Below are positions 3,200 to 30,493 of a DNA stretch of 64,000 nt, piece by piece. Each line of letters opens with the position of its first letter. Position 1 is the first letter of the stretch. Both the position numbers and the translations under genes were made by a program. The DNA is from a bacterium. Lineage in GTDB: Bacteria; Patescibacteriota; Dojkabacteria; B142; OLB20. Where the stretch lies: NCBI GenBank assembly GCA_021463645.1, contig JAJTYI010000004.1, positions 46,277-110,276 on the forward strand. Direction: 5' to 3'. The notes beneath the pieces were generated by a model. It was not told where the DNA came from, made no database searches, and worked only from the letters and a program-made list of their open reading frames with translations.

Positions 3200-4045
3200 T
3201 TAATTACTTATACTTCCGCGGATATTTAAATAGATTCTTCCGTGGTCTCTAGAGAAGCTTGCCTTCACTTGGTAACCATCTTCTATCCAACTCATTAGTC
3301 CTGACTCTGAGTTGTATTGATAATCTTCTTTGTTTTCGTAAACACCTTTGTATTTCTCTATCAGGATGCCGAATTCGTCAATATCGTCAATGCCGTCTTT
3401 GTTTTCATCCCCACTATCTAATACAGTAAAGTACTTGGTATATTCAGTTTGCCCCCCAACCTGATTAAGAAGACCGTATGAGTTTTCTTCCTCTACAAAC
3501 ATCGTATCCTCAATAAATAAACTGGGGAATGTGTCAAAATACTTATTTTCTTTTGTAAATTCGTCGTTTGGGAAATACACTTGAACATAAGCAGTTTCGT
3601 CAGAGTCATAATGTGCTGCAGTTACCCTGTATTTTCCAATTAGTCCTTTTACCATATCAGGTATAGGGAATTCTTCAACAATTTCTTGGTCAAAGATGCT
3701 TTTATAATAATCCAAAAATTCTGATTGAGAAGCTTCGGTATAAAAGACTACATTGTGGTAGCTGAAGTCTTTATCGTCAAATGTAGAAATATTCCTGGAA
3801 TCCCAATTATTATAGAGCTTGCTAGAGCTCACTTCTGTGACTTTATACAGTGGGACATCATTAACCGGATAGTCGTCTAATAGATATTCAAATTCTGAAA
3901 CTTCCGCACTTGTGGCACTGGAACTTGATGATTCGCTATTTTCGTCTGTGCTATCTTCTTTCGGAAGATTAGTCATGAGAAAAATAAAAATTATAAGCAC
4001 AATTACTAAGACTAGGGATAAAAAAAGTTTCGAAATGTTTTTCAT
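3200..4045 (-). CDS. hypothetical secreted or membrane-anchored protein
   Basis: 281-aa ORF with N-terminal TM/signal anchor and a Ser-rich linker. Confidence 0.55.
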   Translation of the reverse strand: MKNISKLFLSLVLVIVLIIFIFLMTNLPKEDSTDENSESSSSSATSAEVSEFEYLLDDYPVNDVPLYKVTEVSSSKLYNNWDSRNISTFDDKDFSYHNVVFYTEASQSEFLDYYKSIFDQEIVEEFPIPDMVKGLIGKYRVTAAHYDSDETAYVQVYFPNDEFTKENKYFDTFPSLFIEDTMFVEEENSYGLLNQVGGQTEYTKYFTVLDSGDENKDGIDDIDEFGILIEKYKGVYENKEDYQYNSESGLMSWIEDGYQVKASFSRDHGRIYLNIRGSISN

Positions 4046-5238: not shown

Positions 5239-6710
5239 TTGTAATTAAGACGTGGTGATTTAATTCGAGTTATTATTATACCAAATATAAAAATAATGGC
5301 TCCAACTATTAATGAGATGAGATAACCATTGCCAGTTGGCACCAAAGTTATGTTAATCCCTAATGTAATTTGAGGATAAGTTATGACCTGTTCATCAGTA
5401 GTTGTTGCTACTATTGTCACTGTATGCAAACCATTCTCAATATATGAGAATGTACATTCGAAGTTCCCTTCTGCGTCTGCAGTGGTTTTGCAAATCTTAG
5501 GTTCAGAATTAACTGTAATCTTCACAAATGCCAATGGGTGTGTTATCCCTTTAAATTTAATATTGTTGTTGTAAGGGTAATAATATGTAAAGACATTAGT
5601 TAATATGTAGATAGCGTTAATATTTGTAATCCTCATATCTATTGCTGGAGTTAGTGTCACTGTAGGTTGGGGCGTGTTTGTTGGAACTAATGTAGGGGTA
5701 GGGGTATTTGTAGGGTAAACAATTGCAGGACCAGCACAGCGATAGCCAATATCTTCGTTGCTTCCTACATCAGCCACACTTAGACTCATTGTGAAAATAC
5801 CACCATCGATTAAGCTTGTCCATGAACCTCCACGTAATGCAATTCTCAAACCAGCGGATACTTCATCATCACCAAATGTTCAGATCCGTCCAACCCCATG
5901 AGTTGAATTATATGATGAATCCAAGGGTCTTATGATGTCGTAAGAAAGCATGCCATAACCGTCGATGTCTGTGAATTCTCCCCAACCTCCAGATGTTCCA
6001 TCATCAGCAGTAGTGCTTAAAGTCGGCATATTTACACGAGGTATCACACTATCAGCATCGTCTATGCGAAGATGTTCCCACACATTCCCAGACAAATCCC
6101 ATATTTCAGTTCCATTCGATAATATAATTTTAGATTTTTCATCTCGAGATGTTCCGTATTCAGGATTTTCACCATCATAACTAACTCCATCTATAACGCC
6201 AACATTACCTCTTTTTAATCCTCCTAATCCTGCAATTGTAGAACCCATAACACCGTCAATCCAGTTTGCAGATTGAAGTTCTGCGTTTCGAGTAATTGTC
6301 ATCCATTCATCATTTTTTATCAAATATGTTCCTGCAGGACAAGCATTCTCTGCTTGATTGTGACTGATGTGTACAATTGGAGCACCTTCTGCAGTTGAAA
6401 CAACTTTGTTAGGATCAAAGGAAATGATGTCCCGATAATCCAAACCGAAACCAGAATTCGCAACAGCACCGCAAGCTTCTGCTGTATCACCAAGGCCATC
6501 TCCAGTACAGTCTTATTTAGCTTCAAATTGCATCACTGAGAACTCTTCAGTATTGTATAGAGCATTCCCTGGTACGTTTTGCCACCCAGTTCCTGGGGCA
6601 ACACTTGTGTTAATATCTTCAGTCGATTGAGCTTTTGTATTTATCAATTCTCTCGAATACACTAGGAATATTAATGGTAATACAACAATGATGATAACTA
6701 TTTTCTGCAT
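5235..6710 (-). pseudogene. FGE-sulfatase (SUMF1/DUF323, C-type-lectin fold) surface protein interrupted by two in-frame stops
   Basis: Three ORFs (6513-6710, 5880-6443, 5235-5849) share one reading frame; they are separated only by TAA (6513-6515) and TGA (5880-5882); motifs FSVMQFEAK, GNVWEH, RGGSW, IGYRCA; then a PT-rich linker, an Ig-like region and LVPTG + TM + basic tail. Confidence 0.7.
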
Positions 6711-29786: not shown

Positions 29787-29939
29787 ATGCTCTCAATAAA
29801 ATATATAAAGTGTAGAGCATTGATGTGATTATATTGTTTGTTCACTCTGACAACTTTGGATTCAAACGCAAAATATTAGAATCCGTGAAAAAAGATGAAA
29901 AAAATAGGGAAAAACATTATAATAGAGAGCATTCAGCGG

Positions 29940-29945
29940 TATAAT
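29940..29945 (+). promoter_or_regulatory. candidate -10 box (TATAAT) for the tRNA-Arg transcription unit
   Basis: ggtataatg at 29938-29946; a second tataat lies at 29918-29923; no clear -35. Confidence 0.3.
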
Positions 29946-29975
29946 GCTGATGTTTCGAAAATATAAGCAATAAAT

Positions 29976-30146
29976 GCGCTGATAGCTCAATGGATAGAGC
30001 AACTGCCTTCTCCCGATGATTTGGACGAAGCGGAGCGAGTCTATAAATCATCGAGGATCCCGTAGATATGATTTGTGAAGGATCGGGATCCACGTCATTG
30101 TAATGCTCACTAAGTTCGCATACAATGAGCGGGATAAGCAGTAGGT
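29976..30146 (+). pseudogene. truncated tRNA-Arg(UCU) copy (positions 1-47, no T arm or 3' acceptor) with a 124-nt structured insert in the anticodon loop
   Basis: 29965-30011 is identical to 30154-30200; 30136-30146 is identical to 30201-30211; the insert at 30012-30135 has three 7-9 bp helices plus terminal tcccg/cggga pairing. Confidence 0.65.
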
Positions 30147-30164
30147 AACACAAAAGCAATAAAT

Positions 30165-30237
30165 GCGCTGATAGCTCAATGGATAGAGCAACTGCCTTCT
30201 AAGCAGTAGGTTGCAAGTTCGAATCTTGCTCAGCGCA
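30165..30237 (+). tRNA. tRNA-Arg (anticodon UCU)
   Basis: Cloverleaf by eye: acceptor gcgctga/tcagcgc, D arm gctc/gagc, anticodon stem actgc/gcagt with loop cuUCUaa, T arm gcaag-ttcgaat-cttgc, discriminator A; flanks gcaataaat/atttattgc extend the acceptor helix; T-run follows. Confidence 0.9.
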
Positions 30238-30271
30238 TTTATTGCTTTTTTATATAGTTGGAATATTTTCC

Positions 30272-30493
30272 TTAAATAGGTTTTGCAGGAGCTAATGGAT
30301 CTGATTCCTTTACCCAGTGATTATTTGGTTGCCCATTTACTGAAGGGCCTTCATAATTGTATGTTCCTGGTTCAGCGTACGGATCATCAACTTTGGTTCT
30401 AATATAATTGCCAGGGGGTATAGGTACACCAAGAACGTCTACCTCGTAACCCAATTCAGGCACTTCTACCACATTCCCAAGTGGTACTTCCAT
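30272..30493 (-). CDS. hypothetical small Pro/Gly-rich protein
   Basis: 73-aa ORF only; no family recognised. Confidence 0.35.
   Translation of the reverse strand: MEVPLGNVVEVPELGYEVDVLGVPIPPGNYIRTKVDDPYAEPGTYNYEGPSVNGQPNNHWVKESDPLAPAKPI

Follow-up and report, generated by a model that had tools for sequence, protein, structure and literature searches.

A stretch of 64,000 nt from a bacterium of the Dojkabacteria (GenBank assembly GCA_021463645.1, contig JAJTYI010000004.1, positions 46,277 to 110,276; hereafter the window, in which positions are counted from its first letter) carries a gene of tRNA-Arg(UCU) that is preceded by part of another tRNA-Arg copy, and this upstream copy is interrupted in its anticodon loop by an insert of 124 nt. 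The comparisons described below indicate that the insert is apparently a conserved and new structured RNA module, lying in the relic of an insert-laden tRNA-Arg gene. Our reading of the whole locus, to which we give about an even chance, is that the live tRNA-Arg(UCU) is preceded by a fragment of an older gene, split between positions 36 and 37 by a conserved RNA of about 124 nt, and that this arrangement is a structured leader kept by selection and freed when the tRNA is processed.

Anatomy of the tRNA-Arg(UCU) locus

Repeat search in the window located an exact 47-nt repeat at 29965-30011 and 30154-30200, which widens to 54 nt at 94% identity (29958-30011 and 30147-30200) with a spacing of 189 nt, and a 12-nt repeat, TAAGCAGTAGGT, at 30135-30146 and 30200-30211. 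The repeat copies are separated by 142 nt (124 + 18). The insert lies between the two parts of the upstream copy, and a T/T ambiguity of 1 nt at its boundary places it at site 36/37 or 35/36 of the tRNA. Its hairpin arms were found by the same search (30014-22/30045-53, 30052-62/30084-94 and 30088-102/30121-135). An earlier note, made from the letters alone, had described the 47-nt repeat, the repeat of positions 37-47, the insert of 124 nt and its hairpins, and all of them were recovered in place.

Folded by itself, the insert reaches -41.5 kcal/mol (z = -3.05), a stability equalled by one of 200 shuffled sequences. For 29965-30250, the minimum-energy fold (-102.5 kcal/mol, z = -5.4; a thermodynamic prediction only) joins the one 3' half to the upstream 5' copy, a pairing that the earlier note had thought possible. 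One tRNA-Arg(TCT) is called, at 30164-30238 by ARAGORN and at 30165-30237 by the Rfam model RF00005 (77.4 bits), and the intergenic region of the window which holds the locus measures 486 nt.

A perfect 20-nt inverted repeat (30152-71 / 30230-49), followed by a T-run, lengthens the acceptor stem of the intact tRNA by 13 bp of pairing between leader and trailer. In the window and at the equivalent places of the related loci L077, L079 and L051 (L numbers denote the contigs and loci compared), such pairing adds 7-13 bp to the acceptor stem; it also covaries (GCAATAAAT/ATTTATTGC, GCAATGAAT/ATTCATTGC, AATAATGAAT/ATTCATTATT), the covariation being seen in L077 and L079. Bacterial pre-tRNAs seldom show such pairing, which hints at processing by a step specific for double strands, or at a role in termination.

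The structure of the locus is no assembly artefact, an outcome that the earlier note had named as fatal to its claim and that four contigs (L001, L002, L075 and L076) exclude. With 2 nt of difference in 5,076, the Joint Genome Institute contig L001 must be a separate assembly from that of the window, and its 486-nt intergenic region is identical. The Logan contig L002, from another run, covers the promoter, the full 5' half, the insert and positions 37-46; beyond position 46 it continues with a different linker and then a different tRNA-Arg 5' end. L075 and L076 each cover the insert, positions 37-47, the linker and the intact tRNA. Other Logan contigs, built with k=31, end inside the repeat, as they should if the repeat is genuine and exceeds k.

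Distribution of the insert and layouts of the locus among relatives

Related contigs were reached via exact-protein look-ups of the neighbouring genes, and homologues of the kinase and the regulator beside the locus led to the syntenic loci of seven further lineages. A metagenome scan gave two true relatives, L051 and L044, among 37 matches, the other 35 being chance matches in GC-rich coding sequence. The insert was recovered in seven other genomes or strains, and in all of them except L044 it stands between a conserved promoter on its 5' side and an intact tRNA-Arg(UCU) on its 3' side. Its carriers (L001, L002, L075/76, L051/64/65, L072/73/74, L069-71, L077/78 and L044/80) hold copies of 114-128 nt, it occurs in six lineages, and it is absent at the locus in L060/61, L062/63 and L079. 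The order of promoter, unit and intact tRNA-Arg(UCU) is the same in the window, L075, L051, L069, L072, L074 and L077. All units of the Dojkabacteria-clade loci end at tRNA position 46/47, and this shared end point argues that they descend from one event.

After the shared promoter block, the layouts diverge among relatives. In L075/L076, which belong to the same species level as the window (95.6% nucleotide identity), a structured module named D-ins2 stands in place of the leader, the acceptor strand and the 5' part of the D arm, and it is followed by GATTAGAGCAACTGCCTTCT, the insert with one difference, positions 37-47, the linker and the intact tRNA. Positions 1 to about 23 of the pseudo-tRNA are likewise swapped for another module in L069 and in unit 1 of L072. 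L069-71 show D-ins2, a diverged insert and then a tRNA with the acceptor GCGCCAG, while L072/L073 carry two tandem units before the intact tRNA and L074, from the same species in another sample, carries one. L051 begins with the acceptor and D stem, an 88-nt D-loop insert, the insert-bearing anticodon arm and positions 37-47; an intact tRNA of another acceptor type follows, and about 60 nt further on there is a remnant of a T-loop insert with a 3' acceptor strand matching the outer 5' strand. L077, whose regulator is 47% identical, is nested in the same way with a different outer acceptor type, and its 356-nt region is predicted to fold as a tRNA-shaped scaffold that bears the inner tRNA on a long stem (z = -5.95). 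Where the insert is absent, L060/61 and L079 have only a D-loop insert fragment before the intact tRNA, and in L062/63 the intact tRNA comes first, with a T-loop insert and the old 3' end behind it.

The most divergent copy, L044/L080, comes from a GC-richer organism. A TATAAT of its own precedes the unit by about 20 nt, and the unit comprises an anticodon arm holding a diverged insert, then the variable loop, the 5' strand of the T stem and the start of a T-loop insert. Its tRNA sequence continues to about position 56, the acceptor strands and the 5' strand of the D arm are missing, and no tRNA was found in the roughly 2 kb recovered. The ORF (open reading frame) next to L044 has no homologues, and L080 only re-confirmed the L044 sequence. 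The earlier note had also proposed that the 5' half might act as a leader decoy competing with the genuine one; as a conserved function this does not hold, for the acceptor and D-arm part is missing in L075, L069, L072 unit 1 and L044.

Judged from these layouts, the insert is part of an older tRNA-Arg(UCU) gene with structured inserts in several of its loops, D and T included, and the locus has been rearranged time and again with one intact copy always retained. L060 and L062, with 92% amino-acid identity in the regulator, yet differ in locus layout, and L002 is a recombinant with a window-like left side and an L069-like right side. The leader of the upstream copy in the window (Table 1) is best taken as the ancestral junction of promoter and tRNA, the same junction standing before the first tRNA or fragment in L060 and L062.

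Several further observations concern the modules and alleles found here. In L051 (1311-1722, - strand) and L077 (4994-5341) an outer tRNA-Arg-like gene encloses an intact tRNA-Arg(UCU) that has a pairing leader and trailer of its own, and the outer 5' and 3' acceptor strands are complementary (GCGCTGA/TCAGCGC in L051, GCGCCAG/CTGGCGC in L077). Two conserved structured modules occur at the D-loop position: D-ins1, of about 88 nt with GCGAAGC motifs (L051 1620-1708, L060 2698-2787, L079 about 5745-5840), which is found behind three different acceptor types, and D-ins2, of about 120-140 nt (L075 4995-5112, L072 2706-2845, L069 205-264). A T-loop insert follows GTTC at position 56/57 of the old gene in L062 (2608-2706) and L044 (334 to about 480), with remnants in L051 and L077; its first hairpin and CTAGC are common to L062 and L044, and its 3' end to L051, L062 and L077. 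At least four alleles of the intact tRNA-Arg(UCU) gene occur at the locus among the window, L060, L062, L051, L069 and L077 (GCGCTGA, GCGCGGG, GCGCGGA and GCGCCAG). They differ in the acceptor stem, and GCGCTGA and GCGCGGG, both read right through, differ also in the T stem, positions 8-47 being identical. The close relatives L060 and L062 use different alleles as the live gene, and among the close strains represented by the window, L002 and L075 the downstream tRNA allele or the upstream module varies.

Conservation and structure of the insert

For the response-regulator gene, comparison of the window with L051, L069 and L072 gives 0.33-0.44 identity at fourfold sites, which are thus saturated, while the insert remains 82-92% identical among these species. 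Within the insert, the loop of hairpin H2 is 48-71% identical between species of the clade, hairpin H3 shows no difference in its 39 nt among the window, L051 and L072 unit 2 (100% identity), and the junction-proximal base pairs are invariant, L044 included. Since H3 is slow and the H2 loop is fast on a saturated background, selection is favoured over recent transfer.

The consensus fold is a four-way junction. Its closing helix P0 consists of the anticodon stem, the pairs U33-A38, U34-A37 and U36-A, and two C-G pairs, and the three hairpins H1, H2 and H3 are linked by single A residues. Among eight distinct sequences, 97.3% of the cells are paired, versus 33-39% with slid partners, and compensatory changes occur at seven pairs, a number reached by none of 500 shuffles. 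All ten pairs of P0 are invariant or near-invariant. In H1, four of the 13 pairs have compensatory changes and three have one-sided G-U changes; the stem of H2 is invariant save two changes from G-C to G-U and one mismatch; and in H3 three compensatory pairs are supplied by L044. These eight sequences thus combine compensatory changes with above-neutral conservation, as is expected of a conserved structured RNA in general.

Nine G-U cells pair only on the + strand, the strand of the tRNA, which points to an RNA made in the tRNA direction. The tRNA-derived flanks have gained pair-breaking mutations in L069 and L072 unit 1 with the insert core left intact, and this argues for selection on the insert core rather than on tRNA-likeness. 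An 80-aa ORF on the reverse strand over the insert (29917-30159) was considered and rejected: about 10 nt of this stretch are deleted in L069, and conservation tracks helices, not codons.

Promoters and a possible mechanism

Upstream of the first tRNA-like piece, promoter scan found ATGAAA-17-TATAAT at 29895-29923 with 10 of 12 matches, and a second TATAAT can be read at 29941-29946. The promoter block is near-identical in L051, L060, L062, L066, L069, L072 and L075 although the fourfold sites are saturated. Given this promoter upstream of the fragment and the RNA constraints on the tRNA strand, fragment, insert and tRNA would most likely be transcribed together as one transcript. The cut of RNase P at the 5' end of the tRNA would then free a structured leader, of about 190 nt in the window strain. 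Selection on the junction core argues that the module acts as an RNA, and it may be retained for a role at the RNA level, such as folding of the precursor, survival or stability, processing, or protein binding; H3 might in addition double as a second promoter for the tRNA.

The exact 47-nt 5' copy stands outside this conserved design, and most probably arose not long ago, when the fragment and the live gene exchanged sequence by gene conversion or unequal crossing-over. The 5'-half copy is specific to the strain, the upstream junction in the window being that of L060 and L062, while L075 keeps D-ins2. The same recombination process would account for the two units in L072 versus the one in L074.

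Comparison with known classes of RNA and introns

Consistent with the earlier note, which had recognised no RNA class in the insert, none of the Rfam 15 families matches it on 29800-30400 even at E <= 10, the only match there being the tRNA model RF00005 on the intact gene. Patescibacteria are rich in tRNA introns, and 36/37 of tRNA-Arg is a known site of group I introns, which in bacterial tRNAs average 257 bp (PMC13011429). The insert resembles these introns in the type of host gene, in the site (36/37 or 35/36), in the phylum and in being a structured RNA, but it differs in several respects. No match to the group I model RF00028 came up on 29800-30400 (E <= 10) or on six related loci (L044, L060, L062, L065, L069 and L072; E <= 0.1 to 0.5), for which Rfam gave tRNA only. 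The insert ends in ...GGGAT or ...CGGGA depending on the choice of boundary, so it lacks the terminal guanosine, and at its 114-128 nt it has no P3-P9 core and falls short of the group I size of about 200 nt, being half as long as the smallest group I introns. The host gene is incomplete as well, for the clade copies stop at 46/47 with neither T arm nor 3' acceptor strand adjacent, and since the host copy is always truncated, splicing could not yield a tRNA. A group I intron was accordingly rejected. A bulge-helix-bulge (BHB) intron was rejected on inspection of the consensus fold, in which P0 is a near-continuous helix with single-nt irregularities instead of two 3-nt bulges 4 bp apart.

Intervening sequences (IVS) of bacterial rRNA genes are excised by RNase III without re-ligation. 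Like them, the insert is closed by a stem (P0, which continues the anticodon stem) and sits at the end of a hairpin loop in the gene of a stable RNA; it is also patchily distributed among relatives and well conserved in sequence where present. Unlike them, it sits in a tRNA, where cutting without ligation destroys function, and the host copy is already non-functional. Non-coding RNAs linked to tRNAs are another known case, including small RNAs derived from the spacers of tRNA operons and MALAT1/mascRNA with 3' ends defined by RNase P. The present locus is like these in having a structured RNA directly 5' of a tRNA on the same strand and promoter, of which RNase P would set the 3' end; it is unlike them in that the RNA is itself built on a tRNA anticodon arm, and its processing is here only predicted. 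The multi-intron and split tRNA genes of archaea (Thermoproteales and Nanoarchaeum; PMC4090602, PMC4033280) similarly have inserts in the D, anticodon and variable or T loops of one gene, and genes in pieces. Unlike those cases, the host here is a bacterium, no BHB is seen at the junctions, the site is not 37/38, and the pieces cannot assemble a complete tRNA.

Search for traces of a mobile element

Blastn found no further copy of the insert in the window, and a covariance model found none outside the locus in 180 kb of window and related loci. It is also absent from viral contigs (three patterns), phage genomes and plasmid collections. Insertion sequences and miniature inverted-repeat transposable elements are known by many copies, terminal inverted repeats and target-site duplications, a pattern that the insert does not show, its terminal inverted repeat being only 4-5 bp. 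The small element inserting into anticodon loops that the earlier note had proposed finds no support, given this single-copy state, the common 46/47 end in the clade and the lack of matches among viruses, phages and plasmids.

What usually leaves a partial tRNA gene behind is the integration of an element (PMC9897764). The attL/attR tRNA remnants described there differ from the present case, in which no kb-scale element lies between the copies, no integrase is nearby, and the intervening 124 nt form a conserved RNA fold. No recombinase-bearing element was found between or next to the copies, and the repeat covers not the 3' part of the tRNA but its 5' part, that is, the leader with positions 1-36, and positions 37-47. 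A far attachment site was sought through a displaced fragment of the tRNA 3' part, and the two weak matches near 51.3 kb, inside an ORF, were rejected as chance. A scan of the genome collection for tRNA-Arg(UCU) 5' halves followed by a non-A base gave six matches in unrelated phyla, none with the insert, and matched no Dojkabacteria. The CCCGT...ACGGG hairpins were considered as an element of the repetitive extragenic palindromic (REP) type and rejected, with one occurrence only in the 64 kb, beside tRNA-Asp; GCGAAGC is not enriched.

Weighing of the explanations

The structured leader freed by tRNA processing faces several objections. Co-transcription, release by RNase P, stability of the RNA and any function are steps that we infer; what is observed is the anatomy, conservation, covariation, strand and turnover of the locus. 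The covariation is good support, short of statistical proof, with only eight sequences at hand and most of the double changes coming from L044. The loci without the insert in close relatives (L060/61, L062/63 and L079) mean that it is dispensable or replaceable. In addition, gene exchange between lineages occurs here, as L002 witnesses, and part of the conservation could stem from it, and the invariance of H3 could come from a promoter at the DNA level instead of a role of the RNA. This last point leads to a serious rival or an added function, since promoter and RNA roles are not mutually exclusive. The insert would then be mainly a regulatory cassette of the DNA, with H3 as a sigma-70 promoter that drives tRNA-Arg besides the upstream promoters and with the hairpins secondary, which we consider unlikely as the principal explanation. 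The scan match TTGTAA-17-TACAAT at 30098-30126 (9/12) speaks for it, as do the -35 box, 17-nt spacer and -10 box kept in the window, L051, L069, L072 and L077, the constant spacing (34-38 nt) of -10 box and tRNA 5' end, and the rank of H3 as the most conserved segment of the insert. However, it leaves the compensatory changes in H1 and H3 and the strand-specific G-U pairs unexplained, a spacer conserved at 100% is not normal for a promoter, and in L044 the -10 box reads CACAAT with no tRNA downstream. A doubtful possibility of another kind is that the insert is one of several expansion modules, in the D, anticodon and T loops, of a large tRNA-shaped RNA of the Candidate Phyla Radiation (CPR) which holds a working tRNA-Arg on its variable-arm stem, or else a new, non-group-I class of tRNA intervening sequence handled by host enzymes. 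On the scaffold idea bear the nested fold predicted for L077, the same outer 5' and 3' acceptor strands in L051, and the tRNA-Asp locus of the window with its similar self-fragments, hairpins and leader/trailer stem.

It appears quite unlikely that we are dealing with a true intron or intervening sequence of a kind so far undescribed in bacteria, which would be removed by protein (for example by an RNase III-like staggered cut with ligation) or by its own chemistry, and of which the copies seen are stranded in dead genes. Site 36/37 is the classic intron site of tRNA-Arg and tRNA introns are plentiful in Patescibacteria (PMC13011429), the further structured inserts that relatives carry in this gene (D and T) also lie in loops without exception, and the consensus fold sets the two junctions opposite one another in P0, with a stagger, in our reading, of 2 bp if the boundary is chosen one way. 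Against this, the insert-bearing copies all lack part of the tRNA and have an intact copy alongside except in L044, so that none could yield a tRNA, and there is neither terminal G nor group I match, half the smallest group I size, and no BHB geometry by inspection. The earlier note had offered a relic of an intron-bearing allele with a partial duplication; the relic part stands, as relatives show the older insert-carrying tRNA-Arg fragment, and, its site aside, the insert shows none of the group I or BHB features looked for. A wholly neutral relic, in which a decaying duplicate with filler merely looks conserved through recombination among lineages, is very unlikely. Lineages do differ in which parts of the old gene they retain, the insert being gone altogether from some, and rearrangement between the close relatives L060 and L062 and the recombinant L002 fit such a history. 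Against it stand the sharp contrast of rates between the near-neutral H2 loop and the invariant junction and H3, the compensatory and G-U changes, and the fold kept in the distant L044/L080 copy. The plain decay of a duplication, which the earlier note had allowed for, is refuted by an insert core as conserved as the tRNA across saturated species and by its compensatory changes. It seems highly improbable that the locus is the footprint of an integrative or mobile element targeting tRNA-Arg(UCU), with the repeats as duplicated attachment sites or a 189-bp unit as a mobilisable cassette. Such an origin would suit the usual nature of partial tRNA genes (PMC9897764), the 189-nt period with its variable number of units, and the intact tRNA with own leader and trailer inside an older gene in L051 and L077. 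Yet only 124 + 18 nt lie between the repeats, the 5' and not the 3' part is duplicated, no recombinase domain was found in six scanned neighbours or in the Pfam marks of related loci, and the unit is single-copy without viral, phage or plasmid matches.

Features of the locus and its gene neighbourhood

The features of the locus are collected in Table 1.

Table 1. Features of the tRNA-Arg(UCU) locus, in positions of the window
Feature	Position	Strand	Remarks
Promoter block, two TATAAT boxes	29895..29946	+	5' of first tRNA-like piece; conserved among relatives
Leader of upstream copy, aaaatataagcaataaat	29958..29975	+	94% repeated at 30147-30164
Upstream pseudo-tRNA, positions 1-36	29976..30011	+	Acceptor 5' strand, D arm, anticodon stem 5' strand, CTTCT; identical to live gene
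P0 5' strand	30002..30013	+	Anticodon stem, loop nt and first two insert bases; pairs with 30132-30142
Insert (AC-insert), 124 nt, four-way junction	30012..30135	+	Consensus fold
Hairpin H1	30014..30053	+	13 pairs
Hairpin H2	30055..30091	+	8-bp stem, 21-nt loop of variable sequence
Hairpin H3	30093..30131	+	Overlaps promoter-like TTGTAA-17-TACAAT at 30098-30126
Upstream pseudo-tRNA, positions 37-47 (aagcagtaggt)	30136..30146	+	Copy ends here
Linker and leader of live tRNA	30147..30164	+	Leader pairs with trailer; linker 15-18 nt across relatives
Intact tRNA-Arg(UCU), 'T-type', acceptor GCGCTGA/TCAGCGC	30165..30237	+	ARAGORN, Rfam RF00005
Trailer complementary to leader, then T-run	30238..30255	+	Inverted repeat with leader

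Upstream of the locus lie the genes of a histidine kinase and a response regulator, divergently transcribed, and for the response regulator NCBI labels a 99%-identical homologue as Candidatus Dojkabacteria (CPR/Patescibacteria). Downstream there is a convergent ORF of 73 aa without Pfam match, and then an SRAP peptidase. The 73-aa ORF (30272-30493, - strand) converges on the tRNA, and an ORF of 70-74 aa is found at the equivalent spot in relatives. Two of the six neighbouring proteins scanned match a family (the histidine-kinase ATPase domain and SRAP) and four match none; the response regulator, a cold-shock protein and a uracil phosphoribosyltransferase are known from the precomputed Pfam marks of related loci. 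No recombinase, transposase or reverse transcriptase was found near the locus, in the six proteins scanned and, for recombinase, also in the precomputed marks at related loci.

The tRNA-Asp locus and similar arrangements in other phyla

The only other tRNA in the window, tRNA-Asp at 371-444, has an architecture like that of the Arg locus. A 13-nt repeat, AAAGCGGGATTGT, which comprises the leader and positions 1-8, occurs at 268-280 and 366-378, 98 nt apart, and the upstream copy is followed by a hairpin at 281-303. Another 13-nt repeat, the internal CGCGTGAGGTTGC, occurs at 409-421 and, 126 nt downstream, at 535-547, the latter being preceded by the hairpin CCCCGTA..TACGGGG at 504-530; the stem motif CCCCGTA...TACGGGG is also present in D-loop inserts of the relatives' Arg locus. 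Leader and trailer of tRNA-Asp form an 18-nt inverted repeat (357-374 / 440-457), and a TATAAT precedes the upstream fragment by about 35 nt. The tRNA loci of this lineage may thus in general carry fragments of their own genes, hairpin modules and long leader/trailer stems.

Some arrangements in unrelated phyla are also worth recording. In a metagenome-assembled genome (MAG) of Ignavibacteriaceae (L017 1796-1902, - strand), a tRNA-Arg(UCU) 5' half is cut after the anticodon and a different, complete tRNA-Arg(TCT) follows 12 nt on, a similar layout. The tRNA model matches 124 nt in L022 (870-993, Polyangiaceae) and 115 nt in L017 (2988-3102, Ignavibacteriaceae) with internal insertions, and in a Planctomycetia MAG (L018, about 3295-3700) a tRNA-Arg(UCU) 5' half is followed by an ORF-containing insertion; none of these gave a group I match.

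Implications

Regarding practice, tRNA fragments of this kind mislead the annotation of tRNAs and break short-read assemblies. Regarding evolution, the acceptor-type allele swaps, tandem units and nested copies observed here indicate that a tRNA gene which is essential and present only once in a tiny genome can still be a hot spot of rearrangement, and such loci give a direct handle on the birth and death of bacterial tRNA introns and expansion segments. If the module is a functional RNA, it would be a new RNA family in the little-understood CPR/Patescibacteria class Dojkabacteria, and an RNA born from a tRNA anticodon arm at the very site where introns insert into tRNA-Arg.

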